Below are positions 9,076 to 56,388 of a DNA stretch of 56,388 nucleotides, piece after piece. Position 1 is the stretch's first letter. Each line of letters begins with the position of its first letter. The DNA lies in assembly GCA_030295235.1 (NCBI GenBank), contig AP026179.1:310001-366388 (forward strand). The letters are read 5' to 3'. The notes under the pieces are model-generated. The model saw only the letters and a program-made list of their open reading frames with translations, did no database searches and was not told where the DNA came from. This DNA comes from Fistulifera solaris (taxonomy: Eukaryota). A program made the position numbers and the translations under genes.

Positions 9076-9136
9076 CTACAGATTTGGCGCCACCACGCGT
9101 ATCACTTCAATTTCACTATCGTCGTCATCAATATCA

Positions 9137-9167
<31 letters not shown>

Positions 9168-11312
9168 CTTCTTCTTCTTCTTCTTCTTCTTCTTCTTCTT
9201 CTTCTTCTTCTTCTTCTTCTTCTTCTTCTTCTTCTTCTTCTTCTTCTTCTTCTTCTTCTTCTTCTTCATGCAGTGGGGTACTTTGTGCATCGAATCACGA
9301 TTCTCGACAGGGAAGCCCATGTCCAGGCTTCCCATAATAGACGACAAGGTGAGAGGATCCGTCCAAATTTTCTGGTTGCGGTGAATTTCCAAGTCGCGTT
9401 CCACTCCCGGGGCAATGTCAGGAAGCTGTCCAAGCAAAGCTGATTCTGTTGCTGCCTCAATCGCATTAACTTCCTGGTCCTTAGAAATTTTTAGGGACTC
9501 GCAGTGCGCCCGCACCTTTTCCAAAGTCGATTTCAACTCTTCATTACTTGTCCAAAGCATAAAGTATTTTCGTTCCGTAGGGCACCGACACATGAAATGA
9601 CTGTGACGCAAGCAGCTCACTTTCGACTGACTACACTGGCACGCCACTGCCGAAGAGAAGCATACGTGTTTGCAAGCATGACACAATCGTCGATCATCAT
9701 AACTTGCGCTCTTTTCGTCAAGTTGGTCTAAACTGTTGCGAGGAAGCGCAATGACGTCTGATACATCACGAACGCCATCATCGCTTAGCTTTTTGCGCAA
9801 ACGAAGCTCTTCCTGTACCACACGTTCCAACTCATTCAACAGACGACGACAGGTCGCGTAGGATTTCACGTCTTCCAGATGATTGGCCATCGTAAATGTC
9901 AGACGGTCCTGTGAAAATACAGCCGGCCGAGAAAAGGAGCGATAGCGTTCGTTCGCTTCAGAACCATATGAAATCCAATCTGGCGTAGCAAAGTTCACCG
10001 CTTCACCAACGTTCGGACCAAGACTAAAGCCAGAATGAAAAGACCTGGGAAACGTGACCTGTGGAAAGACAACAAGGTGAGATGATACAATGTGGCTTCT
10101 ATGCGATCCAGATCTGTAAACTTACGACAAATTCTCCTTCATATTGCAATAGCTTACTGACTACCACGTCCGCATTTTGAAGGAGTCGTGGACTAAACAT
10201 GGTAGTAATGTGATGAAGCAGATCAGGAACATCTCTCATCTTCATGGAAAGATAGTTCTTAAAGACGCGCTCGAGACCTTCCGCAGCTTTCTTCTCCCCT
10301 GGAACACCGTACCACTGCTTGGGTGCGCCTTTGTGGTGATAATTGATGCTGTACATGTAGTTATCTTCATTGTGCCAGCAGAAAGTCGTAAACAACGAAC
10401 CAAAGTACATCCAGGGGCAATTGACACCATTGATACCGACTTTCACATATTGCAAAACACTTCCCGGTGCACTCGGTATATTGTTTAAATTCCACCACGT
10501 CTCCTTGTAATAATCTTCCGTTCCAAATTTGGGTTCCGGCAGATTCATCTTTTCGGCATTTCTGGTTCCGTGCACACTTCTACCCCGTTCCGACAGCGGA
10601 AAGCCCGATCCAAAGTCATGAGTATCCACATCATTCCCGTACTCGACTGCCACTTCCTTGGTGTGTGTCTCTACGACATCCCAGTAATCACGTTCTAAAT
10701 TATCGGGTGTGAATTGTCGACGACCGTCGCTCGCATCCGTGTGACGAGCCAGCAAATCATGATCCGGATAATGTGCATTTTTCCATGCTTTCGTGCGTTC
10801 ACTCGAGACCTGTAAATACTCTTTTGCCGCGTAATCATTGCCATCCCCGAAGCTGACACCTTCTTGCAATCGATGTAGCATTTGCAATTTTGTAGCGAAC
10901 GTTTTCTGATTTCGATCAATGTCAATGCCTGTAGCGGAAAACGCGAAGAAATAAGAGAGAATATAAGAGATGAATAGGTAACAATGAAAAGAACAACTGA
11001 CATCCTGTGCGACTAACCAAAATAGCGAGAAGGATTCCATCCTTTCGGAGGCACAATTTTACAGATGCCGTAACGTTCCGCTACTCCCTGTATCTTAGCA
11101 ATATAATCCAGCGGATTGCCTTCCATCTCTTCTACCGTAGGAAAGAAAACAGGAGCCCATGGAATATCAAGTTTCCCTTGACGCGTTCGATCGAGTTTGG
11201 AATTTTGGATGGCTTGCGCTAAATAGCGCTCTTCTGTCGCGGTAGCAAATTGAAAGTAACTCGGAGGACGCCTTCTGCGTCGCTTCGCGGCGCGGTGATT
11301 CGCGGTGCTCAT
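9076..11312 (-). CDS. KDM5/JARID1-like histone demethylase (JmjN, JmjC, C5HC2 zinc finger)
   Basis: JmjN (APVFFPTVEE..YGICKIVPP); JmjC with Fe ligands in CWHNED and TFPRSFHSG; C5HC2 finger (CHACKHVCF..CQC..CLRH..CRC). Introns 10929-11017 and 10059-10125 restore the frame. The C-terminus is probably in the poly-Glu frame ending at 9076. Confidence 0.9.
9138..9267. repeat. (CTT)43 / (GAA)n microsatellite in the 3' end of the JmjC gene
   Basis: 130-bp perfect trinucleotide tract. Confidence 0.95.
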
Positions 11313-14511: not shown

Positions 14512-14979
14512 AATTTCTGTATGTTTCTATGTATCGTTGCGGAACCTCTGGCAAGCTATGGAGGTCTGCATTGATTGTTTCTGTTTTTATGAATGGCTTC
14601 TTTGTGAGCCCGCGAACTTCACTGAATCTTTTCGCGCGCAAAATCTGCGCCAAAAAGTGAAGATTTTAGCTCTTTTCTTTCTATAGTAAATTTTAGTTAG
14701 ACGTTGTTCTAGATTTTCCTTCTCAACGGCTATTGATCTGTTAAGTACAGATACTCTTTGAACTGGTTTCTGTACAAATGGAAGCTTCGCGGGCGCGCAC
14801 CCAAAGACCCTGAATTTTCAAAAGCCAAGAAAGCAGAAAGCTGCCGCCCACCAAGAAAAAAAATGACTTGAAGCAACAACGCAGAAAGCTTTCCCCGTGC
14901 TATCGTTGTCTTTTTCTTTCTATCAAGACGTCAAATTTCGACCTCAGCTTCCATCAACGCCCTTCACTTTTGAAGACGA

Positions 14980-16008
14980 ATGACAAATCGACAAACCGCG
15001 TTGCCTCTATTTGACGAGCCGACCTTGTCAGATATTTACATGAGCGACATGGAAGACGACGACGACGATGACTTGAGTGACGATTCGATAGCGAGCTCTG
15101 CCGTGGAAGGCGCGTTTCCTGTACAACGGATGTCGCAACAGAATGACTCGTTACTTGCAGAACTGCCGGCGAAAAGTCTATCCATGATACAAACACTGCC
15201 AAGTCCTATGAAAACACCCAATCGGCATCGCTCGCGAAGATCACGTCATCGTCGACAACAACCGAGTCCAGGAGAAGATCCACCGGGATACGAAGCTTCG
15301 AGCACATTAGATTTGACGCGCTTTATTTATACGTTACCGGACGTGCATGAAGAAGAACCTTCCAAGGCTTCGACGATGCCCAAGGACCCAAAGTTGATTG
15401 ACCCGTATGTGCAGCAACGGCGCTTACATTTGTGCGTCATTTTCCTTAGCTGCATGTTCTTGTTGCTGGGGATTACGGTCGCCGTTATCGGTTCGACCAT
15501 CTATCAAGAAGATGAAGTCCCAACGGCTACCGCTGCCAGTGTCGCTCTCGAACAGGAAGATGGTGGTAGTTTACCCGCCGTGCCCATTGATCTCCCGGAT
15601 AATCTTTTTAGAGTTCGTCCTCCGTCACTGTCGCCGTCTCGTGGGGATACTACATTTCCTTCGGCATTGAAAGATACTATTGCACCAACCGCCATGCCTA
15701 CGTTGCGTGTATTCGAAGTCACTCCACCCATGGCGCCTCCTAGGATGCGACCGACCGTACGACCAACCCGAGCACCCACCATGCAATCCACAGACCCACC
15801 TTCGTCGCCGCCGATCTTGGAACCTTTGGAGGTGCAAGTGTCTCCACCGTCGCGACCACCCACACGCTCATCTTTGACGGCCCGTCCGACACCGGTTCGA
15901 TCGTTCGCTCCGACCCCCAGACGCGTTGAGTGGAGGCCAGCGCCCGTAGAAGAGACGTTTGAACCCACGGTACCCGCCAAGAAACCAAAAGGAGAAAAAC
16001 GGCAATAA
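14980..16008 (+). CDS. Single-pass membrane protein with Pro/Thr-rich C-terminal region, copy 1
   Basis: 342-aa ORF with TM segment LCVIFLSCMFLLLGITVAVIG and PT/PS repeats. A paralog at 24648-25667 differs only by in-frame indels and substitutions. Confidence 0.75.
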   Translation: MTNRQTALPLFDEPTLSDIYMSDMEDDDDDDLSDDSIASSAVEGAFPVQRMSQQNDSLLAELPAKSLSMIQTLPSPMKTPNRHRSRRSRHRRQQPSPGEDPPGYEASSTLDLTRFIYTLPDVHEEEPSKASTMPKDPKLIDPYVQQRRLHLCVIFLSCMFLLLGITVAVIGSTIYQEDEVPTATAASVALEQEDGGSLPAVPIDLPDNLFRVRPPSLSPSRGDTTFPSALKDTIAPTAMPTLRVFEVTPPMAPPRMRPTVRPTRAPTMQSTDPPSSPPILEPLEVQVSPPSRPPTRSSLTARPTPVRSFAPTPRRVEWRPAPVEETFEPTVPAKKPKGEKRQ

Positions 16009-16416
16009 GGTTTAGTAGGATATGCTTTCTTTGTTTCTAGACTCATCATTGCGGAAAAGGATCGCCCATTTGAAGTCGAACGTCACAACCGCTTTATCAC
16101 CATAGTTACTGCTCATCGGAGAATGCCTTTGTTGACGATTCAGCCGTTCTGGAGCTTCCTCCTTGTTTGTGGCTCAAATTTTGGAATCTCGTGTGTGCCA
16201 ATTTCGGGATCATGTGTGTGCAATTTTCAGGCTCGATTAACTATTACGACATGCTATCCATTCACTAAAGATTCGCTATGACAGAAGTGCTTCGTCGAAA
16301 ACGAATGCTACCAAGTACCCACAAAATTTCGATTGCAGCAATGGCTGAAGCCTGGCTTTCATTATCAGCCGAAGGAGACGTCCTGCTGATTATGTTAACT
16401 GTTTCTATTTTTAATT

Positions 16417-17992
16417 TTATTTTGGCCAGTATTGCCCGTTCAATACTTCATATGCGTACTCTTTTCCGTAATACTCACTTTTGAATTTCACGATGGTGGG
16501 TTCGATGGGATCTCCATAATAAGCAACTGAGAACACCTGTCTATATGTACGTGGCCAATATGTGGTCCCCCACTTAAATCTTCCATCAGAGTAATAAATT
16601 TTGAGGGACAAACGTTGAGTAGATGTTGGAGATGTTTTGAAACATCTCGTTGTTACATGGAACCATAACATTCGACTGTTGACGGGCGAAGGTAGAATGA
16701 CAATACTTTCAATGATGCCCGGCTCCGATTGATCGACTACATGAGTTCCCATATCATAGTCGGAGAGCATGCCTGGAACAGTGGCCCCTGTCACTGTAGC
16801 TACCGTTGAAAAGTCAAAAGTAGGAAAAATAGAGGCTTGCAAGTTCCAGCGAGTTGCTGTAAATGGCTGTGGTGGCGTAATCTCCTTGCAAAGCTCTCCG
16901 ACAGCATTAATAGCAGTTTCTATCACCGTACATGCTTTTTCGGCCTTATCGAGGGCCCTCTTGCAGGCAGCCGCAATGAGAATTCCCTTCTCCCGTAGGT
17001 CCAGCTGCCAGCAAGTCGATAGCTGCCCCGATTGCTACGCATGTTGTAGTTTTAAAGGTTTCAAGTTCAAGTGCGGTGCAAGTGAGGTCCACGACGTCAA
17101 GAGCAAGTTCGCAAACTTCCTCCACAGCTGTTGTATCGTCTTCCGTCTGGACATTGATCCAGAAATAATATTTGCCATTGGAGGGTGTACCCCACACGCA
17201 ACCGTCTTTTGTGTAAGATTGTGAGTCTTCTGAGAGTTCGTAACAAAGACGAAGATTTGCGTCGGTGTACGGTTCACCACACTTGATGATTTGAAGCACG
17301 ACACGTCGATAACCAGATGAAGTATCAGCGCTTCTAACAACACTGTCTTCCAACACCTCGAATTCGAGTGTATCCCCTTCCTTGGCATCGCTCGGACTTT
17401 GAGAAACAAATCCATCAGGTTGCAAATTCACCGTCAAGTCAGCGGTACGCGAAGTGATGTTCGACGACGAAACTCGGTTCGGGCCTTCCGTGTTCAACGA
17501 TGTTGCGTATCGCGTACCGTTGATCTCCACTGCAATATCAGCCTCGTTAAGAGAAGTCCAGTTAATATCCAGGATGAAATCTTCCGCGGTGTTTGAAACT
17601 CTGCCAATGCGTCCGCTCTCATCAACACGCAAATTCACTAAGTCGGAATCGCCGCCGACAAAGAAATCAGTGACCGTGCTTGCGGTGCCGTTGGTGTTCT
17701 TCGTTCCGTGAATCTCAATCTTATCTCCCTTGTATGTTGTCGAAAGTATCTTGCTTCCTGGACCTGAATCGAAAGTAAAGTCGTTAACATCGATCTTCTC
17801 TTCCTTCTCTTCCTTGTCGCGAGGACCCTTGAAAAAGTAGCTACGATCTAAGAAGATGGAGTCCGCCGCTGCATTCGTTGAGTAAGCCGAAAACTGCGCG
17901 ACCCCTTTCAACACAAGCAGCGCAGTAGTTACGACCCCGAACAGGAGCGCAAAGCGGCCTGCATTGTAGAACTCACGTGTCGTGTTTGTCAT
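16417..17992 (-). CDS. Signal-anchored/secreted protein family, paralog A
   Basis: ORFs 16946-17992 and 16417-16926 join via an extra C near 16985, seen by comparison with paralogs B and C. N-terminal hydrophobic segment FALLFGVVTTALLV, beta-rich domain, 6-Cys helical segment, variable C-terminal domain. Confidence 0.7.
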
Positions 17993-18719
17993 CGTGATTA
18001 TTTAGCGTTAGGAGCGGTGTTTGAGAGTAAAAAGAGGAAATAAACTTGCACAATGAGCACTGATATTATTTTTTGCGATGAATGAAATAATGAATGCACA
18101 TTGCGCGATGCGCAAACAGCAAGAGCAAAAACCCTTTTCATCACATGCGACATGCGAGCTGTGCTGTACAAGTAAGGTTACGTAGTAGTAACCTTAAACC
18201 TTACAGGGTACATCGGCTTTTGTAGCTTGCCTACAGAAGACACCACAGTACTGTAAAACAATACTACGGAGTACGTACTACGAGTAAGACATTCAGTCAC
18301 GGACGTCGTGGACTTACCAGTTATCCGGGTTCTCCTCTGTCGATAAATTTCCTTAGCAGAGCTACGTGAAATTACATAGACATTCGAAGCGTTGGATCAT
18401 TCGTTCCATCATCGTTTTGTTTTCAAATCGTGGGCGACTCTTGCGTTCTGCTACGATCACGAAGCAATTACGGTGGGCATCATGAAAGGGCTAGTCTATT
18501 GTTTCACGCTTTGCAATTTTGCAGGCGAGACGTGTGAGTAGGATACATCATCATCTTCTTTTGCATCGCTGAAGAACGCTAACCTTATCCATTAACTGTT
18601 ATCGGCCCCTCGTTTTTCTCCTGCATCGTCGTCCACTTTTATGACATCGAAAGAACGAAGCAAACACCTCTTCTTCTTATGCTCCTCTTATCTGATTAAT
18701 TGTTAAGTAAGCAAACGCA

Positions 18720-19068
18720 GGGTATTGACAGGTTGGAGTGTGAGCGTTGCAGCATCCACCGAAGCGGGGAAAAGATCTTAAGTACGATATCATCACGGCT
18801 TAAAAACTAACTGACAGAGAGTACCATTTATTCGAGAAAGCATGGAGAAAGATGATATTTTCGTCTCTCAATAATAAGAGATTATTCTATCGAAGAAATA
18901 TCACGATGCGGTGCGCAGCAATTCAGTCAGAAGTCAAGCTAATAATTATCAGAGAGGACACCGCGACCGAGTGCCTAAACAGCAATCCGTTTTAAAGTTT
19001 TGTTCAAGAGTCGCTGAGCGACAGCATGAGAGGCTTCTTGGTTTCTAGCCAAAACTAGGGCGATGTTT
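18720..19068. repeat. Duplicate of ~22207-22560 (last ~30 ASPM codons plus 3' flank)
   Basis: Colinear match, e.g. TGACAGGTTGGAGTGTGAGCGTTGC and CAGAGAGTACCATTTATTCGAGAAAGCATGGAGAAAGATGA. Confidence 0.85.
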
Positions 19069-19408
19069 ATTCCATTCGCCGAAAACGAATGCTTCCTATG
19101 TCGGGACTGATTAGAAGGGGTTTAGTCGGACGAATTCGAAAAGATTGATTATTATTCGCTACCTCGTCGAGCGAGCAACCTAGGATTTATCAATGAAGTT
19201 ACTCAAACAGACTCAACGCTAAACAAAGGGATCAGCTTCATTTCGTGGTTGTTGTGGATAATAGGCGTTCAGCATTAAGGAAGACTTTAAATGAGAAATG
19301 CATTTGCTTGCTTTCCTGCTTAAAAAAGAAATTGTGCGGAAATATTGCTGGAACAGTGCCATGATAAGTATCGCAAACGCCCTAGCTCCATTGTCCCTGT
19401 TTTTTGTG

Positions 19409-20989
19409 TTAGGGTAGTATTGCCCCGTTCATCACTTTGTATTCGAATTCTTCTCCGTAAGGTTGACTCTTAATATTAACCAGGTCGAGAACATTGGGCC
19501 GATTTGCTAAACTATACATGGAGACCTCTCTCCTAGGATTTCCTGGAGACCAAGTTACATGCCAAATTCTTTTTCCCTCAGAGTCATAAATGTTGAACCG
19601 CATATATTGTTCACGGTACCATGGCCAAGACGTGAAACATCGCGTTGCAATTATAAATCTTAATTGCCCAGGATAAGGTGCAGGTTGAACGACGATACTT
19701 TCAATAATGCCCGGCACAGACCAATCAATATCGTGAGTTCCCATATCAAAATCTGAGAGCATGCCTGGAACAGTTGCTCCTGTCACTGTAGCTACCGTTG
19801 GAGAAAAGTCAAAAGTAGGAAAAGTGGAGGCTGCAAGTTCCAACGAGTTGCTGTAAACGGCTGTGGTGGCGTAATCTCCTTGCAAAGCTTTCCGGCAGAC
19901 ATGGCTGTGATAGAAGCTGATGCCATCTGGCATACTTTATCGGCCTTATTAAGGGCCCTCTTGCAGGCAGCCGCGATAAGAATTCCTTCTCCCGTAGGTC
20001 CAGCTGCCAGCAAATCTATAGCCGCACCGATTGCTATGCACGTTGTAGTTTTGAAGGTTTCAATTTGAAGTGCGGTGCAAGTGAGGTCCACGACGTCAAG
20101 AGCAAGTTCGCAAACTTCCTCCACAGCTGTTGTATCGTCTTCCCGTCTGGACATTGATCCAGAAATAATATTTGCCATTGGAGGGTGTACCCCACACGCA
20201 ACCGTCTTTTGTGTAAGATTGTGAGTCTTCTGAGAGTTCGTAACAAAGACGAAGATAAACGTCGGTGTACGGTTCGCCACACTTGTTGATTTGAAGCACA
20301 ACGCTGTCGGTAGCCAGATGAAGTATCAGCGCTTCTAACAATACTGTCTTCCAGCACCTCAACTTCGAGTGCATCTCCTTCCTCGGCATCGCTCGGGCTT
20401 TGAAACCCCATTCCTTCAGGTCGCATATTCACTGTTAAGTCATCCGTGACGCGAGGGTGGCATCCGGCAATGAAACTCGGTTCGGGCCTTCCGTGTTGAA
20501 TGATGTTGTGTATTGCCTGCCGTTGATCTCTACAGCAATATCAGCTTCTGTAGGAGAAGTCCAGTTAATATTAAGGATGAAATCTTCCGCGGTGTTTGAA
20601 ACTCTGCCAATGCGTCAGCTCTCATCAACACGCAAGTTCACTAAATCGTAATCGCCGGCCGACAAAGAAATCGGTGACCGTGCTTGCGGTGCCGTTGGTG
20701 TTCTTCGCTCCGTGAATCTCAATCTTTTCTCCCCCGTATGTTGTCGAAAGAATCTTGCTTCCTGGACCTGAATCAAAAGTAAAGTCGTTGATATCGATCT
20801 TCTCTTCCTTGTCGCTGACGGTTCTTGGAAGAAGTAGCTACGATCTAACAAGATAGAATTCTCTGCTGCATTCGTTGAAAAAGCCGGAAACTGCACGGCC
20901 CCTTTCGACACAAGCAGCGCAGTAGTTACGACTCCGAATAGGAGGGCAAAGCGGCCTGCATTATAGAGATGGGATGTTGTGTTTGTCAT
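19409..20989 (-). CDS. Signal-anchored/secreted protein family, paralog B (several frameshifts: errors or pseudogene)
   Basis: Starts MTNTTSHLYNAGRFALLFGVVTTALLV and is colinear with paralog A across several frames; distinct C-terminal domain. Confidence 0.65.
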
Positions 20990-21204
20990 CGTGAATTTGT
21001 AGTGTTAGGAACTGCGCTTTGGAAGGGAAACAGAGGAGATGAATTCACAATGAGCACTGATATTAGTTATGAATGAAATGCGCAGCTCGCAACAGCAAGC
21101 TTAAAACTCTTTTCATCACTCGATCATCACAGGCTCTGTGCGAGGTGCGCGCTGTACGTGGAACTACACTCGAGTCTTACAGTATCTTGACATTTGAGCT
21201 ACTT

Positions 21205-21276
21205 CCTACAGGGAGACACGGGAACGCACCTCTGCTTGGTACATTTTTCTACGGGGGCCTACGTGAGTGTACACTT
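21205..21276 (+). repeat. 72-bp dispersed element, copy 1
   Basis: Identical to 27922-27993; a diverged inverted copy lies at ~29705-29784. Confidence 0.85.
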
Positions 21277-22467
21277 TTTCCCGAACCTTCCAGGAAACAC
21301 TACTGTGCCTAGAGTAGTATATAAAAGTAAAATTCAGTCACGGACGTACCACGCACCAGGTACTGTACCAGGTATTGAGTAGTGAGTGGACGAGTGGACG
21401 ATGATTTCTCAATACAGAACTGTACAAGTAACCTTACCTGGTACCTGGTACCTTGTACTGTAGACTGTAGACTACTGGTACTGGTAATGAGCCTTATTAC
21501 TGGAAAGGACGTTTTTTAAGACCCGGTCCGGCGAAATAAGGGTGCACGAAATTGCTAGGATTTGGTCACCCCCAAAAAACTTTTTTTCTTCGATTTCTGC
21601 AAAAAATACATCAATCGATAGCTTTTAAAAAGTTATTGCAATGTATTATTCTACTTTTGCTAGTTTTGTCGATATTAACTAATTTTTGAAGCATAAACAT
21701 AGACTTTTTGTAACGGTCGAAGCATAGACAGGTACCGCTGCGCATAACAAATTGTAGAATTTCGTTTCGTTTTTGTACCGCTTCGTCATCGCCAACGCGA
21801 CTTCTCGCTCAAAAACATTCGGCCGTTGAGCAAGAAACTTGATTAAAATTGACTTGAAAGACCACTTTCAGATCCCTCTTTTGGTAAAAGATGATCACCA
21901 TAACGTGGTTGATGGAATGCTACTGCTGGGGGCAATGATTTGTGCCACACGGGGACAAAAGATAAGTTTATTCTTGATTTCGTCGTCGTGAAAATCTTGG
22001 GGTCGCTCTTTCTACTTCGTTTTCTCTTTCACAGCGGCCAAAACAACAATCAACCGTCAAACATCCTCTTTAAGTGTCACTTGAGGTCTATTCTCTGTTA
22101 ATTGTTTATAGAAGCAGCAGTTTTTAGAGGAGTTATGTAACGACTAATAATCACTCACATTTTGTTGTGAATTTTGTAATGGTTGTATTTTGCTCAATTA
22201 TTTTTGGGTAATGACAGGTTGGAGTGTGAGCGTTGCTGCATCCACCGAGCGGGGAAAAGATCTTAAAGTATGATATAATAACTGCTTTAAAATTACTCCG
22301 TAACTGATACAGAGTACCATTTATTCGAGAAAGCATGGAGAAAGATGAAATTTTCGTCTCTCAATAATAAGAGACTATTCTATTGAAGAAATATCACGAT
22401 GCGGTACGCAGCAATTCATTCAGAAGTCAAGCTAATCATTATCAGAGAGGACGCCGCGACCGAGTGC

Positions 22468-24436
22468 CTAAACAGCAATCCGTTTTAAAATCTTGTGCAA
22501 CAGACGCTGAGCAACGGCATGAGAGGCTTCTTGGTTTTTAGCCAAAACTAGGCGGTGTTTGGGATCTTGTTTATTGAAACGATTGCGATTGGAATTTTCA
22601 ACAAGTATGTGAGACCGGCGCGAAGAGACGACGTCGTAAACAGCTTGCAGTCGCTTCTTGTTTTCTTTCGACTTGCAATAGTCCTGAATAAAATGTGAGA
22701 CTAACGATGGAGAAAGTTACAATAGAAGAGCAGCAAAGAAACCTACCATCAGATCCACGTTAGCCTTGACAGACTTTGACAAAAGTGCAACGGAAAGACT
22801 GAAAACAACCTCCTTGTCGCGAAACATCTGAAGCAAGTCCAAGAAGATACGGACGCCAGTAATTGTAGCGACTGAAGGTAAAAGCTCGTTGAAGCGTGCA
22901 ACGTTCGACAATGTCAAAAGGATCCACTCCAAGAGCTCAACATGCGGGAGACTCCGATTGCAGCTCCTTACAAGAGAAAATAGAATATCGGGCGCTCCTG
23001 CTTGCGTAAATGCCGTGCAACATTGGCGTGAATAACGAGTGGCACGTTCAAGAAACTGGATCGAGTCAAGTATGTCCGAAAGGCCCGAGCTCTTTCGCAG
23101 CCTGATCAAGGCTCGCTTGGTTTTGTTGCATAACCGAAGATCGGGATTCATCGTCGAGTTAATCTTTGCGACTTGAACTCTCTGCATTCGGCTTGCCGCT
23201 AAAGGATCCTTTGCGCGAACAGAAAAACCACGGAATGCACCTTGAAGTTGAACGAAACCGGCTGTCATTTTTCGGAATGCCTTCTGCATTCGACACTGCT
23301 TCCAGCTTAAAGCTATTTTTCTGGCGGATGTGTGTTGCAACATGCGCCGAGAGTGTTCACGGTAACTGCACTGAATGATCCGAGCAGAGCGCTCTTTGCA
23401 GAAGGTCAATGCGAGATGTTCATCTCTGCAAGATTCAGCGTGCTTTCTGCCCAACCAGCCACGAAACAGAGATTGAATAGCCACGGCAGAGAGCTCCATA
23501 CAAATGAAGTACGTAACACTAACATAGGCACGCCATGCTCCTTGAATTTGAGTAGCGGCGAAATGCTGCAAGGCCAAGTCTGCTCTTTGGATGTGACCGC
23601 GGACAACTCTTTGCACCTGGGTGATGGCAACTTTTCGAACAAGAAACTTTGACCGAAGAAAGAACATCCTCATTGTGGCTAGAATCTTAATTGCACTAGA
23701 AGATTGTCGTCTTAGGTGCCGTACAACCAAAGATCGTCTTGCGAATGACTGAAGGCGTACTATGTCAGCCCTTCTCTGAGCAACTTTAGATACTGCGATG
23801 AAGCGTCGGGCAGCTGCCTGGATTTGAATGCAACTCAGGATGGCCATCATGTAATCGACATGCTTTGTGTAGCATCTCCAGGTTTTCTGAAGTTTTGTGG
23901 CGGCGCGACCGCGACGTAGAGATACTCGAGTAAGGTAGCCCCGCACAAAGCGTTGAAGAACTATGGCTGCTGAGAATGCTGCACATGACTGAGAGAAGCG
24001 TGTTTTCATGCTGTGCATACGAACGGCCGATTGAATCCTTATAATTGACTTTCTCCGCTCATTAGCCGCTCGTCTTGCCATCCACATCCGTGCAATAGAC
24101 TGGACTATAACAATATCAACCAACTCGATGTAGTAATCAATTCGTGCTACATGCCCCCTGAATACACGTTGAATGTGCACGGCGCTCTTCCTCAAATTCA
24201 TAGTCTCTCTTTGCACAAGATAGCCACGGAATCGGCTTTGAATGACTTGCGCGGCTCGTATTTCATTGTTTCGAGCTACGACCATCATATTCGTAGCGAG
24301 TTTTGCAAGCCAAACACGACACGAACATTGAATCATCAACAGATTGGCTCTTCGGTTCTCAGCCAGCCTACAGGACAACCATTTTCCGTACACAGGACTG
24401 GATTCGGATAGTGCTAGATCGAATCGGTGAATACAT
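22468..24436 (-). CDS. 5'-truncated ASPM duplicate (IQ repeats + ARM-like C-terminus)
   Basis: Colinear with ASPM 30427-32390, with a long open frame, the same last intron (22684-22746) and the same stop position. Similarity ends abruptly near 24442. Confidence 0.7.
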
Positions 24437-24647
24437 TTTCGTGTACGAAATGATGCGTCGCGGGCTCGCACCCGAAGACCCTGAATTTACAAAGCCAAGG
24501 AAGGTGCCGCCAACCAAGAAAAAAATGACTTGAAGCAACAACGCAAAAGCTTTCCCCGTGCTATCGTTGTCTTTTTCTCTCTTTCAAAGCATTGATTTTC
24601 GACCGGTTTACTTGTCCTTTATCAACGCACTTTACTTATAGATACGA

Positions 24648-25667
24648 ATGACAAATCGACAAACGGCGTTGCCTCTATTTGACGAGCCGACCTTGTCGGA
24701 TATTTACATGAGCGACATGGAAGACGACGACGACGATGACTTGAGTGACGATTCGATGGCGAGCTCTGCCGTGTTTCCTGTACAACGGATGTCGCAACAG
24801 AATGATGTGTTGATTGCGGAACTGCCAGCGAAAAGTCTATCCATGATAAAAACCGTGCCAAGTCCGATGAAAACAACGAATCGCCACCATCGCTCGCGAA
24901 GATCACGTCACTCGTACCGACGACAACAACCGAGTCCTGGAGAAGATCCACCGGGATACGATGCTACCTTGGATTTGACGCGCTTTATTTATACGTTACC
25001 GGACGTGCATGAAGAAGAACCTTCCAAGGCTTCGACGATGCCCAAGGACCCAACGTTGATTGACCCGTATGTGCAGCAACGGCGCTTACATTTGTGCGTC
25101 ATTTTCCTTAGCTGCATGTTCTTGTTGCTGGGGATTACGGTCGCCGTTATCGGTTCGACCATCTATCAAGAAGAGGAAGTCCCAACGGCTACCGCTGCCA
25201 GTGTCGCTCTCGAACAGGAAGATGGTGGTAGTTTACCCGCCGTGCCCATTGATCTCCCGGATAATCTTTTTAGAGTTCGTCCTCCGTCACTGTCGCCGTC
25301 TCGTGGGGATACTACATTTCCTTCGGCATTGAAAGATACTATTGCACCAACCGCCATGCCTACGTTGCGTGAAGTAACACGACCTGTGGCCCCTCCGAGT
25401 AGGCGACCGACCTTACGACCGACACGAACACCCGCCATGCAATCCACACAATCGCCTTCGTCGCCGCCGCCGATCTTGGAACTTTTGGAAGTGCAAGTGT
25501 CGCCCCCGTCGCGAGCACCCACACGCGCCCCCGTGACGGCCCGTCCGACACCAGTTCGATCGTTCGCTCCCACCCCCAAACGCGTTGAGTGGACGTCAGC
25601 GCCCGTGGAAGAGACGTTCGAGCCCACGGTACCTGGAAAGAAACCAAAAGGAGAAAAACGGCAATAA
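24648..25667 (+). CDS. Single-pass membrane protein with Pro/Thr-rich C-terminal region, copy 2
   Basis: 339-aa paralog of 14980-16008, inside duplicated block ~24458-25759 = ~14787-16100. Confidence 0.75.
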   Translation: MTNRQTALPLFDEPTLSDIYMSDMEDDDDDDLSDDSMASSAVFPVQRMSQQNDVLIAELPAKSLSMIKTVPSPMKTTNRHHRSRRSRHSYRRQQPSPGEDPPGYDATLDLTRFIYTLPDVHEEEPSKASTMPKDPTLIDPYVQQRRLHLCVIFLSCMFLLLGITVAVIGSTIYQEEEVPTATAASVALEQEDGGSLPAVPIDLPDNLFRVRPPSLSPSRGDTTFPSALKDTIAPTAMPTLREVTRPVAPPSRRPTLRPTRTPAMQSTQSPSSPPPILELLEVQVSPPSRAPTRAPVTARPTPVRSFAPTPKRVEWTSAPVEETFEPTVPGKKPKGEKRQ

Positions 25668-25790
25668 GGTTTAGTAGGATATGCTTTCTTTGTTTCTAGA
25701 CTCATCATTGCGGAAAAGGATCGCCCATTTGAAGTCGAACGTCACAACCGCTTTATCACAGTTGTTACAGATCATCAGAAAACATTTTTT

Positions 25791-27363
25791 TTAAATCCGT
25801 ATTGGGTCGTATTGCCCGTTCATTGTTTCAAATGCGTATTCTTTTCCGTATGGCTCGCTTTTTATTTTTAACGACGGTGCGAATATTGAAATCTGTATAA
25901 TAACTCCAGGAGTACACTTCTCTCGAAACACCTGCCCAAACTTTGCTAGTAAACATGAGTTTCCCATCAGAGTCGAAACGTTTTAAAGACAAATATTGTG
26001 TGTACAATTGAGATGCTTTGAAACATCGCGTTGTTACATAAAACAACAAGAGTCCATTGTCCTTGGGTCCTGGTTGAATCACAATACTTTCAATGATGCC
26101 CGGCGCCGATTGATCGACCTCATGAGTTCCCATATCAAAGTCTGAGAGCATGCCCGGAACAGTTGCTCCCGTCACCTTAGCTACCGTTGAAAAGTCAAAA
26201 GTAGGGAAAATGGATGCTTGCAAATTCCAGCGAGTTGCTGTAAACGGCTGTGGTGGTGTAATCTCTTTGCAAAGATCTCCGGCAACCATAATAGAAGCTG
26301 ATGCCATCTGACATGCTTTTTTCGGCCTTATTGAGGGCCCTCGCAAGCAGCCGCAATCAGAATTCCTTCTCCCGTAGGTCCAGCTGCCAGTAAGTCTATA
26401 GCCGCACCGATTGCTATGCATGTTGTAGTTTTGAAAGTATCTATCTGAAGTGCGGTGCAAGTGAGGTCCAAAGTTTCAACGGCAAGTTCGCAAACTTCCT
26501 CCACAGCTGTTGTATCGTCTTCCCGTCTGGACATTGATCCAGAAATAATATTTGCCATTGTACGGCGTACTCCATACGCAACCGTCTTTTGTGTAAGATT
26601 GTGAGTCTTCTGAGAGTTCGTAACAAAGACGAAGATTTGCGTCGGTGTACGGTTCACCACACTTGATGATTTGAAGCACGACACGTCGATAACCAGATGA
26701 AGTATCAGCGCTTCTAACAACACTGTCTTCCAACACCTCAATTCGAGTGTATCCCCTTCGTTGGCATCGCTCGGACTTTGAGAAACAAATCCATCAGGTT
26801 GCAAATTCACCGTCAAGTCAGCGGTACGCGAAGTGATGTTCGACGACGAAACTCGATTCGGTCTTCCGTGTTCAACGATGTTGCGTATCGCGTACCGTTG
26901 ATCTCCACTGCAATATCAGCCTCATCTAGAGAAGTCCAGTTAATATCGAGGATGAAATCTTCCGCGGTGTTTGAAACCCTGCCAATGCGTCTGTTCTCAT
27001 CAACATGCAAAGTCACTAAGTCGTAATCGCCGCCGACAAAGAAATCGGTGATAGTGCTTGCGGTGCCGTTGATGTTCTTTGCTCCGTGAATCTCAATCTT
27101 TTCTCCCCATATATTGTCGAAAGGATCTTGCTCCCTGGCCCTGAATCAAAAGTAAAGTCGTTGACATCGATCTTCTCTTCCTTGTCGCGACGGTTCTTGA
27201 AGAAATAGCTTCGATCTAGCAAGATGGAGTTCTCCGCTGCCTTCGTTGAGTAAGCCGAAAACGGCACGGCCCCTTTCGACACAAGCAGTAATGCAGTAGT
27301 TACGACCCCAAACAGAAGCGCAAAGCGACGTGCATTGTAGAGCTGGTGTGATGTGTTTGTCAT
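25791..27363 (-). CDS. Signal-anchored/secreted protein family, paralog C (several frameshifts: errors or pseudogene)
   Basis: Starts MTNTSHQLYNARRFALLFGVVTTALLLV; colinear with A and B; third variant of the C-terminal domain. Confidence 0.65.
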
Positions 27364-27921
27364 CGTGAATCTCTAGTCTTGGGAACGGCGTTTGGAAATG
27401 AAACAGAGCAGATAAACTCACAATGCACGCCTTTTCATGTATTTGCGATGAAATGAAATTTTTGCTCAATTGTCACAAAATCTGTGATTGCAACAGATGT
27501 ACAACGTACAGGCCGTAATGAACGTCTATTTTGCCGATCATTCAAAACCATCAAATTGTGAACAACATCCGATGAAGTTGAGCGGATAGCGTTCACATAT
27601 CTATTCAACTCCAACTGTTATTGCACGTTCTCATCCATTCCAGTCCTTTCCAGGATAATCTAAGATCCTTGGCTGTTCAAATAGATGAGAACCACTACAA
27701 TAGATAAACGTTAAGCCGCGCATGACTCAACCTATCATCCCGAACCCTAACAAATCAGAATTCATTTACTCTAGTGCATCATCAATCATCAATCATCATT
27801 CATCATGCTGTTCGAGTTCGAGGTGTGAGCTGGAACGAGCTACTGTAAGGTTTACATGGAATTACAGTCAAGAGTCAAGCCAGACAGTACTGCATGAACG
27901 CCTTTTGTTGCTTGTTGCTTA

Positions 27922-27993
27922 CCTACAGGGAGACACGGGAACGCACCTCTGCTTGGTACATTTTTCTACGGGGGCCTACGTGAGTGTACACTT
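27922..27993 (+). repeat. 72-bp dispersed element, copy 2
   Basis: Identical to 21205-21276. Confidence 0.85.
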
Positions 27994-28249: not shown

Positions 28250-29367
28250 TTACTGAGCGAATGCGTCCAAGAGAAGGACCCCCAACACAACTCCAGCTAC
28301 ATGAGAATATAGATCAACGGAATTGAAGAAGGGGCCCGATCCAGACGATGCAGATGTTGTCGGTTCAGGGTTATTGTCAGACGAGTTGCTTCTCGCACCC
28401 GAGGGCGAACCCGTCGTTTCGACTGGAGCTGATTCATCCGTAGCAGTAGGTGGTGATGGTGTCACAGGATTAGCGACAGGTGCTGGTACCGGTGCCGGTT
28501 CCGGTTCTCCCTCGACGATGCCTGCGACTGCAACGTAAATTCAAACAATTGACCGTCCGAATTGGCGGGCTCGGAAACTAAAATGTAGTACTCGATACCA
28601 GTCTCGGCGGTCCACTCGATTGTGGATCCCCATGTACTACCGGAAGTGACACAAGCGTCTCCATCGCCACTACGAGATTGGATCCCCAACACTTCTCGGG
28701 TATTGCCGGTGGTGGCTCGCAGAGCCAGCGATTCTTGAGCATAAGTGGTAGTGTACTTGAACCAAACTCCGTTTTCACCAAACAAACCGCAGACGTCTTG
28801 AGAAAAATCCGAAAGTGCACCTACTGTGGTGAAATCCCCCCGAAAAGGAAGATCATCTTGTGTCAACGCAACAGCAGTCTCCATGCTGTCGTTTACGGGA
28901 GGCTCTAACTCTTCGACGAAAAGCGTATAGGGGTCACTCCCATCGGCGTCACTAAAGACGTAGAGGAGATACTCGACTCCAACTTCTGCTTGGAAGACCA
29001 AATCGTTAGAAGTGGCCAAGGAAGACGAATCTTCACATTTCAGAGAATCACAAGAGCCCGTAACAGCTACCGTTGCCACCGCAAAAATAAATTCTTCCAT
29101 CACTTCCACAGACACGCGGACCATGGTTGGTTTCGAAGCAATGTAACGGAACCAAAAGCCAGCTGGAAAGGCCGAAGATCCCGAGGCTAGAGCGTCATCG
29201 CAGATAGAGAGAGGAAGATAGTAGGAATTATCCACAGGTTCTACCGATGACGGAGTGAATGTAAAAGGCGCCGTAATGCTTTGTGGAGCACTGCAAGACG
29301 TTTGAGCCTGCACCAGAGCTGTCTGGAGCGTCGTCGTGAGCAACGCTAATAGTAACGACACCATCAT
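28250..29367 (-). CDS. Secreted, probably GPI-anchored surface protein with two related beta domains
   Basis: Signal peptide MMVSLLLALLTTTLQTALVQA. Internal repeat GFWFRY..AEVGVEYLLYV / GVWFKY..AETGIEYYILV. After one indel at ~28521 a Pro/Ser/Thr stalk and hydrophobic C-terminus (VAGVVLGVLLL) follow. Confidence 0.7.
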
Positions 29368-29704
29368 GAAGCAGTAGTCATGGCGACGAAAGAAAGGCGA
29401 GCGATTATGAATCATTTCAACGCGTTGTACAGATGGTAAGAGGAAAATACAAATGCAAAAAGTTCTTGGTTGGCACATTTTGATTTGGTTGCGATGGATT
29501 ATTATTTGCGAATTGAAGTGCGAGGATGACGTTCGGGGGCAATGCTCTCTTCTGTACAGGTATAATAATGATTTATTTAGTTATGTTAAGGTTATTTTGA
29601 ACTGTACTGTTGACTAACTCTAGTGACTGAAATGTCATACTGTCATACGTGGGAGGGGGGAGGGGCAATACTGAAACTACAGTAACAATCCAATTTTGAG
29701 TTTT

Positions 29705-29784: not shown

Positions 29785-30426
29785 AACGTGACTGAGGTTA
29801 CGAAGGATGTCGCAGAGGAGCTAACGAGACGTCTCAATTCTCCGTCCGCCATATAATACTATCAAACGAAACGAGCAACAAATCCTCCTCTTTGGCGAAT
29901 GGTTTAGTGAGCGAGCAAAGAGAGGGATTAGTGAGAAGCGAAGTTTGAACGTTGTTGCTTGCGTCGAGCCTGACAATAGCTTGTCAAGTACGATAATCAC
30001 GGCAATATGATGAACGGATTCCATTCTTACCAGAAGCATGAGGAAAGAGTCCCGTATCGTTTGGCAAAGGCTAAAACAACCTAAAGATATGACCAGACTC
30101 TCATTATTAAGATGCATAAGAATCTTCGACGTGCGGCGGTTTTGGGCAGCGAAACGATATCGCGCCTACATCTACGGCTTATTTTCATCCCAGAACCTTA
30201 CACACGAGCTACAATTGGTTTCGTCTTAGTCGATGCCGAAACGGGATGCTTCACACTTAAAGATAGGAACACTACGTTATCTCGCTCATACAACTATGAT
30301 GAATAATAGTCACACAATGTGGTGCGGCATATTATGTAATGCAGTCAACGACTAAGCTTTCAATAAAGAACGTCGCAGTCGCCATGTTAAATCACCGTCG
30401 TTGAGATCATCATACAGAAACAGAGC

Positions 30427-33400
30427 CTAATCAACAATCCGTTTCAAGATCTTGTGCAACAGACGCTGAGCAACAGCGTAAGTAGCTTCTTGGTTTCTTG
30501 CCAGAACTAGGCGGTATTTCGGATCCTGCTTACTGAATCTATTGCGATTGGAGTTTTCAACAAGTATGTGAGACCGGCGAGAAGAGACGACGTCGTAAAC
30601 AGCTTGCAGACGCTTCTTGTTTTCTTTCGACTTGCAATAGCCCTGTGTAAAACGTGAGAGATAGAGATAATGCGAGAGGAGCAGCAGTAAAACGTACCAT
30701 CAGATCCACGTTTTCCTTGAGAGACTTCAACAACAATGCAACGGAAAGGCTAAAAACAATTTCCTTGTCGCGGAACATTTGAAGCAAGTCCAAGTAAATT
30801 CGAACGCCAGTGAGTGTTGCGACCGAGTTTAAATGTTCGTCGAACCGTGCAACGTTCGATAATGTCAAAAGGATCCACTCCAAGAGCTCAACATGCGGAA
30901 GACTCCGATTGCAGCTTCTCACGAGAGAAAAAAGAATATCGGGCGCTCCTGCGCGCGTGAATGCTGTGCAACAGTGATGTGAATAACGAGTGGCACGTTC
31001 AAGAAACTTAATCGAGTCAAGAATGTCCGAAAGACCCGAGCTCTTTCGCAGCCTGTTCAAGGCTCGCTTAGTCTTGTTACATAACCGAAGATCAGGATTC
31101 ATTGTCGAGTTATTCTGCGCGGCTTCAATTCTCTGCAATCGGCTTGCCGCTAAAGGATCCTTTGCGCGAACAGAAAAACCACGGAATGCGGCTTGAAGTT
31201 GAACGAAACCGGCTGTCATTTTTCGGAATACCTTCTGCATTCGACACTGCTTCCAGCATAAAGCTATTTTTCTGGCGGATATATGCTCCAGCATGCGCCG
31301 AAAGTGTTCTCGGTAACGGCATTGGATGATCCGGGCAGAGCGCTCTTTGCAGAAGCTTATTGCGAGATGTTCCTCTCTGCACGATTCAGCGTGCTTTCTA
31401 CCCAACCAGCCACGGAACAGAGATTGGATAGTCACGGCAGAGAGCTCCATACAAATGAAATACGTAACACTGACATAGGCACGCCATGCTCCCTGAATTT
31501 GAGTAGCGGCGAAATGCTGCAATGCCAAATCTGCTCTTTGGATGTGACCACGGACAACTCTTTGCACCTGGGTGATGGCTATTTTCCGAACAAGAAACTT
31601 GGACCGGAGAAGAAACATCCTCGTTGTGGCTTGAATCTTTATAGCGCTAAATGATTGTCTCGTCAAGTGCCTTTTGACTATAGCACGTCTTGCTATTGAC
31701 TGAAGACGTACTATGGCAGCCTTTCTCTGAGCACCCATCGATATTGCGATGAAGCGACGGGCAGCTGCCTGGATCTGAATGCAACTCAGGATAGCCATCA
31801 TGTAATCGACATGCTTTGTATAGCATCTCCAGGTTTTCTGAAGTTTCGTGGCAGCGCGAACACGCCGCGTAGAGGCTCGAACGAGGCAGTCCCTCACAAA
31901 GCGTTGAAGAATTATGGCTGCTGATCCTTTTGCACGTGACTGAGAAAAGCGTTTTTCATTCTATACATACGAACGACCGATTGAATCCTTATAACTGAAT
32001 TTCTCCGCTCAATAGCCGCCTGCCTTGCCATCCACATCCGTGCAACAGCCTGGACAATGACGATATCAACCAATTCGATGTAGTAATCGATTCGGGCCAC
32101 ATGCCCCCTGAATACACGTTGAATTTGGATGGCACTCACTCTCACATTCACCGTCTCTCTTCGCACAAGATAGCCACGGAATCGGCTTTGAATGTTTTGC
32201 GCGGCTCTTATCTCATTGTTTCGAGCTACGACCATCATATTCATAGCACGTTTTGCGAGCCAAACCCGGCATGCGCGTTGAATGATCAAGAGATAAGCTC
32301 TTCTTCTCACAGCCAGTTGACAAGACAACCATTTCCGTACACAGGACTGGATTCGGATTGTGCGAGATCGAATAAGTGAATACCTTTTCGTAGCTATGTA
32401 TGACCGACAGATAGTTTGCGCGAAAATGATTTGCAGCCGCATAAACTGGTACTTCGTTTTTGCTGACTTTTGCCGGGTCCACGCTTGAAGAACACTAGCC
32501 GCTTTATGCAATCGCAATATTTCGTTCCTCGATCTCATTCCTCTGATGCGCGATTGTAATCTCTTGACACCCAAGTCGACTATGGGCAAAAGTTTGGTAA
32601 GATATCTGTTTCGTAAAGAATAACTTCTCCAAGTTGCTTGAAGGGAACAGGCTGCATAAACAGCATTATGAAAATGCTTACGCGCTTTCAAGCTTCGCCA
32701 ATAATTTTGAATAACAGTTGCGTGTTGTCTCTTCATGTAAAAAAGCAGAACGTGCAACGTAATACCTATATGCCGTCTGTATGCGTAGGCAGGCGCGCAA
32801 GAGGATACTTACACGAGATATGGCACCGTGTCGGCGCCAAGCACTCTGGATTCGAGTGGCAGCCTGGCGTCTCGACTCTATATCCTTCTCAATAAGGATT
32901 TTTACTCGATATCGAAGATAAGCGATCTGATTTGAAGAATCAAATAAGTTCGATAAAACTGGAAATGAAATAGGATTTGTTCGGCAAAATACATACCTGG
33001 ATACAACGAGCTAAACGATTTTCTTTGTGAGCCTTGCGAGCAAGAAGATGAGTTTTGGTCTTTTTTTGCAAAAGTAATACAGCTTGACGGCGCTTCTTAT
33101 ATTCCTGTCCTGCAAGGAAGCGCCTGGCTAAAGCTTGCACAGTTATAATATCGATGAATGCGAGCTGGAGATTGACCTGAGCCAGGAACCCTTTCCAAAT
33201 CCGCTGAATCTTACATGCGGATTGGACCATTTTAGTGTAACGACGAGCTCGGAAGGCTTTCCATTGCTTTAGGATAACTGATGAGGCCGCTAAGATCAGC
33301 TTTTGATGCAATCGCGAAACATTATTACGCCACCAATGCTGAATTGCGACGGCTGCATCGTCTCGAATCATTTGCTTGACCATCATACGAGTCCACCACA

Positions 33401-49356: not shown

Positions 49357-50639
49357 ATGGATCGACAAATTGAAACAAGCGGAAACAGTTCATGGGGACC
49401 GAATTTAGCAAACAATCAAGGTACGCGGAAAGCATGTCACAGCTGCACGGATCCTATCTTTGGAAACTTTCTCTAACAAGCCTGTTTGAATCGCTGCAAC
49501 AAGGAGACTTTTCTTACAACCCTCATCAGAATTATTTACACAGCACCCACCTTGCGAGTCGAGAGGATCGTATTTCAGACAAAGACCAGCGCTATGGTAA
49601 GAGTATCCCTCGAGAAGCTGATTGCTCTTCAACGACGAACTTTAACACTAACAATCTTGTCAAAATTGACTTGAAGGCCGTGCCGAAAATGGCGACAACG
49701 TGTTCCCTTTAGTTAACCGACAGGGAAAGGTACTCATCGACCAACACGCACGTTGTAACACAACCCATTTTCGTCGAATTCCATATCCGCCATCTGTTGG
49801 TTGTTCTGAAAGCAAAGCCGAAGAGAGTTATTTGAAAGATTCGAGGGATGAGGTCCCCTTCGACAAGTATCGACGGATGCAGATTGACGAACAAGCAATG
49901 TACATGGAGCCCGGCCAGGGCCCTTCGAGCAATACCATTACTTCAGCAATCATCATCTTCAGCACGAAGGGAGCCACGTTAGCTATAATTATCACCACGG
50001 CATGAGTGTCCACCCGTACTGGCAGCAAGGCGACCAAGGATGCCTTGTTGCACCTCCGCAGTATCCACCCAACGCCCATCACGGTTTTGGAGACGATCAC
50101 GAACATTGCCAAGACTATCGGCATTTGATGAAAACAGCAATGACAGGAACCTCTGTTCCTCACTCTGCTCCGCTTTTCATGACTTGCGACCACGAAAGTC
50201 TTTCCGAATATCAATGCCTCATTCGTAAACAAATTGAACTATTCTGTGCCACGAGCTCAGACATAGAGTTGACTGTCCAAGGCCGAAACCGTCACATTGA
50301 AGCGGGACAAGTCGGCGTCCGCTGTCGCCACTGCGCCCATTTGCCGGTAAAGAAAAGAGCCCGCGGAGCCGTCTACTATCCATCAAAACTGAGCTGCATC
50401 TACCAAGCCGCTCAAAACATGGCAACAGTTCACCTAAGTAAGCACTGCACTCTTGTCCCTTCCTTCATTCGCGCGGAACTGCTGAAAAAGATCGCAAGTC
50501 TTCGGCTGGTAGCGGTAAGGAGTACTGGGCGGTAGGGGCGCGCACGCAAGGGGTTATTGAGCTCGATGGGAGGCTCTGGTTCGAACATAACGTTTTGGCC
50601 TCTTACAATCAACACGGATTCGGCCACTTTGGGCCTTGA
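49357..50639 (+). CDS. Uncharacterised CxxC..HxxxHC-domain protein, paralog 1
   Basis: C-terminal domain SLSEYQCLIRKQIELF..QGRNR..GQVGVRCRHC..YYPSKL..IYQAAQNM..HLSKHC. Upstream exons inferred from GT donors at 49421 and 49597 and are uncertain. Indels at ~49920 and ~50488. Confidence 0.65.
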
Positions 50640-56217: not shown

Positions 56218-56388
56218 AGGGTTAGGGTTAGGGTTAGGGTTAGGGTTAGGGTTAGGGTTAGGGTTAGGGTTAGGGTTAGGGTTAGGGTTAGGGTTAGGGT
56301 TAGGGTTAGGGTTAGGGTTAGGGTTAGGGTTAGGGTTAGGGTTAGGGTTAGGGTTAGGGTTAGGGTTAGGGTTAGGGTTAGGGTTAGG
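56218..56388 (+). repeat. Telomere (TTAGGG)n, about 28 copies
   Basis: Perfect TTAGGG repeats to the window end, G-rich strand 5'->3' toward the end, as expected for a chromosome terminus. Confidence 0.97.

Follow-up and report, generated by a model that had tools for sequence, protein, structure and literature searches.

The FLO and EPA adhesins of yeasts, the var genes of Plasmodium and the VSG genes of trypanosomes are subtelomeric families of surface proteins that evolve by ectopic recombination. To our knowledge, little has been established about how diatoms recognize surfaces, bacteria or mates, and most proteins secreted by diatoms belong to no known family. In the available portion of a preprint, Trailins are described as proteins of diatom adhesive trails that carry the bacterial domain Choice-of-Anchor-A (CAA) (bioRxiv 10.1101/2023.03.06.531300). 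Here, we analyzed a 56,388-nt stretch of DNA from the diatom Fistulifera solaris (contig AP026179.1, positions 310,001 to 366,388; hereafter the window), which contains three genes, A, B and C. They are subtelomeric paralogs arranged in tandem and encode an uncharacterised multi-domain protein that is probably secreted or signal-anchored. Perfect TTAGGG units run to the last base of the window, which is therefore a chromosome end, as a first-pass annotation made from the letters alone had supposed, and the three genes lie 29-40 kb away from this array (Table 1). The comparison of their bodies and tails reveals a clade-specific change of evolutionary regime on a still-functional terminal domain with a predicted fibronectin type III (FN3)-like fold, on top of gene conversion in the body, and we regard this change as real.

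All three genes are on the minus strand, at the positions given by the first-pass annotation, and their near-identity ends sharply at the motif GIIESIV, as it had also seen. Up to and including this motif, 372 of 424 residues are identical between A and C, 359 of 426 between A and B, and 362 of 422 between B and C (84-88%). After it, identity falls to 47/93 (51%), 31/91 (34%) and 35/91 (38%), respectively, with a nucleotide divergence of 34-48%, so that A and C are about half identical in the tail and B is lower, in line with the earlier manual alignment. In the three-way alignment of the tails, 22 of 97 columns are invariant, including the framework residues TRCF, SDG/SEG and KS..YG.E..NG picked out before. 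The aromatic richness noted for the tails is likewise borne out: W and Y make up 15/93, 11/93 and 11/95 residues, and W, Y and F together 16-21.5%, about double the 8.2-8.6% in the body. The codons of invariant residues are identical in all three copies at 10 of 22 tail positions versus 256 of 338 body positions, indicating that synonymous change is also high in the tail. The earlier remark that framework codons keep even their third positions is thus upheld only in part. The three length differences internal to the tails are each of 3 nt.

Codon alignments of A, B and C, with broken codons masked, were used to estimate synonymous (dS) and nonsynonymous (dN) divergence and their ratio (omega). 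In the body, dS is 0.22-0.39, dN 0.06-0.09 and omega 0.20-0.31; in the tail, the corresponding values are 0.65-1.29, 0.40-0.66 and 0.51-0.62, and in the tail core omega reaches 0.65-0.90, with a ratio of nonsynonymous to synonymous differences per site (pN/pS) near 1. Across estimators, whole-tail omega ranges from 0.43 to 0.91, with bootstrap medians of 0.52-0.62 and limits of 0.35-1.08, 0.24-0.91 and 0.31-1.03 for the three pairs (upper 97.5% limits 0.91-1.08), and it is never clearly above 1. Across the GIIESIV boundary, dN rises 6.5-8.6 fold and dS only 1.7-2.7 fold over the 75 codons directly upstream (dS 0.37-0.58, dN 0.06-0.08, omega 0.13-0.17), and the counts of nonsynonymous and synonymous differences in the two segments differ accordingly (Fisher p=0.004, 0.001 and 0.0002). 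A change of regime at the boundary, as read by the first-pass annotation, is therefore upheld, whereas the positive, diversifying selection that it saw there is not. In a neutral simulation along the estimated branches (tree length ~0.93 substitutions per site), all three tails stayed open with P ~8e-5, which excludes neutral decay.

Purifying selection acts on the body, which is a mosaic produced by gene conversion. Its sites with one odd copy out form 76 runs, compared with a mean of 121.9 and a minimum of 99 in 10,000 shuffles, and they fall into blocks in which first A equals C, then A equals B, then B equals C; in some 30-codon windows, copy pairs show zero divergence. The related protein P0001, from another source, resembles C over residues 1-40, B over 41-120 and A from 121 onwards, and a 2,919-nt metagenome contig of the public sequencing run X2 joins C-type flanks to an A-type gene. 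Conversion of the body accounts for part of the contrast in dS between tail and body, which amounts to ratios of 2.9, 4.5 and 2.5.

A search of 5.8 billion clustered proteins for close relatives found four proteins (P0001-P0004) in three 90% clusters, three of them named as hypothetical proteins of F. solaris. A corresponds to P0004 (FisN_UnNu118, 524 aa) and C to P0002 (FisN_42Lu002, 524 aa); the 5' part of B corresponds to P0003 (FisN_42Lu001, partial, 296 aa). An exhaustive phmmer search with P0002 against 1.84 billion representatives returned 26 proteins at E<=1e-3, 7 of them at E<=1e-10, with P0005 at 4e-76. The similarity to these 26 relatives (P0005-P0030, including the Entomoneis protein P0007) spans residues ~70-470, with HMMER E values of 4e-76 to 7e-4. 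Shared across the family are invariant cysteines at A positions 238, 294, 305 and 343, the motif AAID....GPTGEG, N-terminal leaders and the same domain order, and A, B and C have all four of these cysteines and the motif of the helical region. Some relatives have lipoprotein-type leaders, and three distant ones carry Big_9, RTX-repeat or BACON domains as N-terminal extensions. A degenerate DNA pattern for AAID....GPTGEG hit three loci in prokaryote genomes. Two are true family members, in metagenome-assembled genomes (MAGs) of Phycisphaerae and Planctomycetota (Table 1), which prompts the question whether genes have passed between these bacteria and diatoms; the third, L002, lies within an unrelated gene and matches by chance. 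Another pattern, from a 6-sequence alignment, gave 22 matches in genome contigs, none of which was confirmed as a family locus. No model for the protein core is present in Pfam, NCBIfam or PHROGs, a sequence-profile search of the PDB gave 0 matches at E<=1, and the ESM Atlas contains P0004 letter for letter, with no usable match and no model.

The C-terminal domain of the family bears the signature GTDGY.DS..C...G...C.L.VPGA ... F. In A, B and C this canonical signature is lost: the Cys pair and VPGA are absent, and only [ST][DE]G and the first Cys are left. The ratio of tail to core identity is 1.06-1.74 in all eight pairs without the Fistulifera protein and 0.46-0.64 in all five pairs with it, indicating that the acceleration of the tail is specific to the A/B/C clade. 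In A, B and C, the terminal domain is thus the part with the lowest conservation, whereas in the relatives it is conserved as well as or better than the core.

An AlphaFold2 (AF2) model built on the family alignment has a mean predicted local distance difference test score (pLDDT) of 71.9, and of ~72-90 in the tail. The predicted order begins with a leader and a single-layer beta domain (70-170), after which a disordered linker leads to a small beta domain. Next come a three-helix bundle, rich in Cys and bearing AAID....GPTGEG, and further beta domains ending in an FN3-like beta-sandwich that the tail and the conserved first strand form together. Residues 422-519 of the model superpose on FN3-type sandwiches with Z 8.0-8.7 (middling for a common fold) and a root-mean-square deviation of 2.5-3.0 over 84-90 residues. 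The matches include the FN3 domains of fibronectin, myomesin and CD45 as well as beta-sandwich domains of glycoside hydrolases, at a sequence identity of 1-10%. With the whole model, Foldseek found only multi-sandwich matches of low template-modeling score (TMq 0.16 or less). A model of the N-terminal 348 residues has a pLDDT of 60.9, and its best match in a VIA search was at Z 7.0 (single-layer sheets such as the TCP10 domain, OspA and pieces of Rhs/Tc shells), with no chain at Z 8. When the variable tail sites were mapped on the model, as the first-pass annotation had proposed, they were spread evenly over strands and loops, with no enrichment in loops (Fisher p=0.63 and 0.34).

The protein has one hydrophobic segment at residues ~14-32, followed by four N-x-S/T sites, and ten Cys. 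Together with the lipoprotein-type leaders of relatives, these features make a secretory or surface location plausible. A plastid-type (ASAFAP-like) leader was also considered, since F follows the hydrophobic segment. None of the public runs listed is recorded as RNA. Those named X3 and X4 have contigs that map to portions of A, B and C; the RNA origin of these two runs is only a guess, and transcription is not thereby shown.

Judged by a dS of 0.65-1.3, the three tail types are old, and one is unchanged in a second source: the tails of A and P0001 differ at 0 of 85 positions. Of 13 substitutions counted between that piece of the X2 metagenome contig and the window, 12 are listed; these are confined to 17418-17731, and none of them is in the tail. 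The searched databases contain only three tail types, which is also the number of copies in the window. No further type was found among the proteins of 95-305 residues in the searched collection, and among the longer ones only P0001 and P0002 appeared; no protein with a B-type tail was found in that collection. With only three types and an identical tail A, to call the tail hypervariable and part of a polymorphic recognition or toxin system, as the first-pass annotation did, goes beyond the data.

In sum, the three copies are tandem subtelomeric paralogs whose bodies are under purifying selection and have been made alike in patches by conversion between the genes. Once past the first strand of the final domain, amino-acid constraint is about four-fold lower, with the reading frame and the framework residues of the family kept. 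This release is specific to the A/B/C clade, which has also lost the Cys pair and the VPGA motif of the domain and gained aromatics. After duplication, the terminal domain may have changed its role, such that the three copies would now carry three different stable heads on the conserved body as a common scaffold, and the heads would most likely bind different extracellular ligands, for instance glycans, matrix or partner-cell surfaces. We therefore tentatively read the tails as old, stable and functionally diverged putative binding heads on a common scaffold, and give this reading a probability of about 0.45.

Several points weigh against it. There are only three sequences, whose shared branches make the three pairwise comparisons not independent. 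The proportion of synonymous differences (pS) in the tail is 0.43-0.62, near saturation, so that dS and omega are imprecise (0.43-0.91 across methods), and the tail alignment requires three in-frame gaps. The FN3-like match has a middling Z and concerns a common fold, and the even spread of variable sites over strands and loops is not what a loop-based binding site predicts. The 3' half of B has no external protein match, and a base missing near 19833 is not covered there. The window carries sequencing errors, which are small beside a nucleotide divergence of 34-48% but not zero, and the public run X1 may be from the same culture as the window.

The alternative that survives best, less probable although still to be taken seriously, is a non-adaptive relaxation in which the terminal domain lost its ancestral role and drifts under a weak constraint to fold and not to disturb secretion, with the three tails functionally alike. 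It fits the omega below 1 everywhere, even in the tail core, the disappearance of the family-wide Cys pair and VPGA motif, the even distribution of changes over strands and loops, and the lack of recent change in tail A between two sources. However, all three tails have remained open over ~0.93 substitutions per site, all three internal length changes are in frame, the AF2 model is still confident in the tail, and the doubled aromatic content of all three tails suggests a gained property.

It is unlikely that the tails reflect an arms race, with ongoing diversifying selection on the binding surface of a polymorphic system, be it a receptor, an adhesin or a toxin, for pathogen, mate or self recognition. 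Nonsynonymous change does rise sharply exactly at the last domain, pN/pS in the tail core is near 1 with the frame kept, the genes are subtelomeric and recombine with one another, and the FN3-type fold is often used for binding. Against this, no estimate of omega is clearly above 1, only three tail types and no fragments of others occur among the 5.8 billion clustered proteins, tail A is identical in a second source with the listed strain differences lying outside the tail, and variability is not concentrated in loops. Moreover, Pfam searches of the neighbouring genes in the window detected no toxin or immunity-like partner, and no match beyond IQ motifs and a sub-threshold Pro/Thr repeat. A more specific proposal, which we consider quite unlikely, is a diatom cell-surface system for recognition that has its scaffold in common with Planctomycetota and in which the tails serve as old and balanced heads, similar to allotypes. 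Selection would keep these heads distinct against conversion, and the system would tell apart partners such as bacteria, mates or self; if true, it would be a first example of a subtelomeric recognition-gene cluster in diatoms.

That gene conversion alone shaped the genes, with the tail showing the true age of duplication, the rest homogenised and selection equal throughout, is very unlikely. This explanation had been raised by the first-pass annotation itself, and part of it stands: tail dS is 2.5-4.5 times that of the body, the body is clearly a conversion mosaic, and a 284-nt heterologous stretch (16124-16407), which lies between the neighbouring gene and the stop codon of A, has no counterpart in the C unit and adjoins the divergent tail of A, could block conversion tracts. 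Yet in the first 75 codons and the 75 codons upstream of the tail, dS is 0.37-0.58, not far below that of the tail, and dN is only 0.06-0.12 compared with 0.40-0.66. A segment with high dS but low dN lies immediately upstream, and its N:S counts differ from those of the tail (p 0.004 to 0.0002); conversion alone is thus insufficient to explain the tail divergence.

The frame breaks of the window were assessed with a frameshift-aware alignment of the copies against the deposited F. solaris proteins. The window does contain the indels that the first-pass annotation wanted corrected: the copies differ in length at 17 frame-breaking and 7 in-frame places, and most of the frame-breaking ones look like assembly error. 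A is broken once. B is broken eight times ahead of its C-terminal end and also contains an in-frame TGA, and C is broken at seven positions (eight events by frameshift-aware scoring). The deposited proteins, by contrast, are open from start to stop for A and C, and for B through the first 296 codons. Apart from its extra base, A differs from P0004 at 2 of 524 residues, and B, with its seven extra bases, from P0003 at 5 of 296. Indel differences without substitutions, such as those of C (Table 1), point to sequencing error, not decay.

The copies were also compared with contigs of the public runs X1-X4, of which 32 of 407 pieces and 12 of 40 indel rows are listed. The seven listed pieces across breaks of the window (Table 1) are all gapped, and the number of gaps fits the extra or missing bases of the window in each range; the X1 piece across the start of B has one further gap, in the 5' flank. 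The base at 20657 is dropped in three runs, and position 20617 is read as C in three runs, which turns the TGA of B into GGA. Breaks of B near 20305, 20144 and 19833 and of C near 26862, 26740 and 26322 are outside the listed pieces, and the one near 19833, a missing base, is also outside the deposited protein. The differing C-terminal end of B arises from a GGGG near 19426, where the X3 contig is gapless, and therefore looks real. In intergenic DNA (18458-19380), the listed differences between contigs and window include at least 8 one-base indels and at least 4 substitutions, so that open reading frames (ORFs) anywhere in the window may be broken or shortened by assembly error. The available portion of a preprint describes a telomere-to-telomere assembly of F. 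solaris from one MinION run, made with Canu and then Nanopolish; Nanopolish is the only polishing in that text, and the word Pilon is absent from it (bioRxiv 10.1101/2021.11.10.468027). The window is likely derived from this assembly. Its frameshifts and stop are mostly assembly errors, and apparent pseudogenes being artefacts in this nanopore-type sequence is a practical warning that gene-family analyses need error-aware reading.

It is thus extremely unlikely that B and C are copies of A that are decaying as pseudogenes, for all their breaks in the window, including the uncovered one of B near 19833. Where deposited proteins and listed contig pieces cover the breaks, these are absent, and independent contigs have GGA at the stop. 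Only indels separate C from its deposited protein, the bodies of both B and C have an omega well below 1, and the likely source assembly rests, in the available portion of its description, on nanopore reads only.

Table 1 Coordinates of the features discussed; positions refer to the window unless another sequence is named
Feature	Position	Strand	Remark
Copy A, ~524 codons	16417..17992	-	matches deposited protein P0004 (FisN_UnNu118) save 2 residues and one extra G
Tail of A: the 93 codons that follow GIIESIV, and the stop	16417..16698	-	
GGG run in A with the sole frame-breaking extra G (GG in B, C)	16985..16987	-	2,919-nt X2 contig 1 base shorter over 16300-17762
Copy B	19409..20989	-	versus P0003 (FisN_42Lu001, partial): 7 extra bases and in-frame TGA within first 296 codons
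Tail of B, most divergent of the three	19409..19691	-	GGGG near 19426 agrees with gapless X3 contig
Copy C	25791..27363	-	versus P0002 (FisN_42Lu002): 0/524 residue mismatches, 8 indel events
Tail of C	25791..26079	-	extra A in A-run near 25866-25871; X1 contig 1 base shorter over 25730-26162
Contig piece across breaks, X4	20340-20677		
Contig piece across breaks, X3	20574-20707		
Contig piece across breaks, X1	20802-21234		
Contig piece across breaks, X4	26325-26699		
Contig piece across breaks, X4	27022-27195		
Contig piece across breaks, X1	25730-26162		
Contig piece across breaks, X2	16300-17762		
Duplication unit 1: Pro/Thr-rich single-pass gene 14980-16008 (+) plus copy A	14767..18088	.	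paralogous to 24437-27459
Duplication unit 2: gene 24648-25667 (+) plus copy C	24437..27459	.	paralogous to 14767-18088
TTAGGG telomere array	56218..56388	+	perfect repeat units
Family member ORF in Phycisphaerae MAG L001	987-2594 of L001		
Family member ORF in Planctomycetota MAG L003	597-2588 of L003		

Segmental duplications form the patchwork to which A, B and C belong, and in it 14767-16123 plus A matches 24437-25782 plus C; B shares only the gene body with the other copies and has no duplicated flank of the kind found in the A and C units. The duplicated neighbouring gene of these units encodes a single-pass, Pro/Thr-rich protein with an acidic N-terminus, whose sole Pfam match is a sub-threshold PT-repeat. 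It lies tail-to-tail with A and with C, not with B, and its two copies are identical at 308 of 335 residues, with a dS of 0.155 and an omega of 0.25. An IQ-motif-rich gene (Pfam IQ, E 1.4e-32) is also duplicated, at 87% identity (22463-24442 versus 30422-32391), and between C and its second copy lies a 338-aa ORF (28462-29478, minus strand) with a hydrophobic leader and no Pfam match. No tRNA genes were found at 13-33 kb in the window.

A short element of 38 nt is present as exact copies upstream of B (21227-21264) and of C (27944-27981). Its word depth in the genome-run contigs is ~50 times that of the surroundings, with a similar high-depth spot upstream of A (18322-18352), and it could represent a dispersed repeat or else a promoter element that the genes share. 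A few kb from the telomere, three tandem copies at 67-77% identity (50173-50533, 52053-52449 and 54200-54565) encode a Cys/His-rich domain (…SLSEYQCLIRKQIELF…VGVRCRHC…), and a long TCT (GAA) trinucleotide run occupies 9119-9276.

In the literature, we found no paper citing the accession numbers or the locus tag and, among the matches listed, none on diatom subtelomeric gene families; the string 'subtelomer' is absent from PMC8147415. Like A, B and C as putative secreted proteins, the Trailins combine a raphid-diatom extracellular protein with a domain otherwise found in bacteria, as far as the available portion of their description shows (bioRxiv 10.1101/2023.03.06.531300), and such a case suggests gene transfer between bacteria and diatoms. 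Unlike Trailins, A, B and C and their relatives have no Pfam match to the CAA domain (PF20597); their fold differs from it, and a role in adhesion is without support here. The FN3 or immunoglobulin (Ig)-like sandwich is approached in that the predicted tail (422-519) superposes on it. It is not reached in sequence, with no Pfam fn3 or Ig match for pieces of A, P0001, P0002 or P0004 (0 families, E<=0.01-0.1) and an identity of 1-10%, and the Z lies within the range that common folds reach by themselves.

The closest likeness in sequence is to an unnamed family of secreted proteins from diatoms and Planctomycetota, with which A, B and C share the similarity of the core, the invariant cysteines, AAID....GPTGEG, the leaders and the domain order. 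They differ from it in a tail that has no GTDGY, C...C or VPGA signature and is their least conserved part; the leaders of bacterial members are of the lipoprotein type, and in some of these proteins the N-terminus is extended by Big_9, RTX-repeat or BACON domains. The cluster therefore offers a compact and testable case, with a scaffold common to Planctomycetota and a terminal domain that is conserved in the relatives and, in one subtelomeric cluster, most divergent yet coding.

The FLO/EPA, var and VSG families differ in having tens to thousands of copies, compared with three in the window. In A, B and C, moreover, tail omega is below 1, the variable part is C-terminal and FN3-like, the host is a free-living alga and no sign of switching or silencing was seen. 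What the cluster has in common with these families is the position near a telomere, the tandem paralogs, the conversion mosaics and one strongly divergent domain in a probably extracellular protein. If the tails bind different ligands, it would show subtelomeric duplication and gene conversion creating new specificities in an alga.

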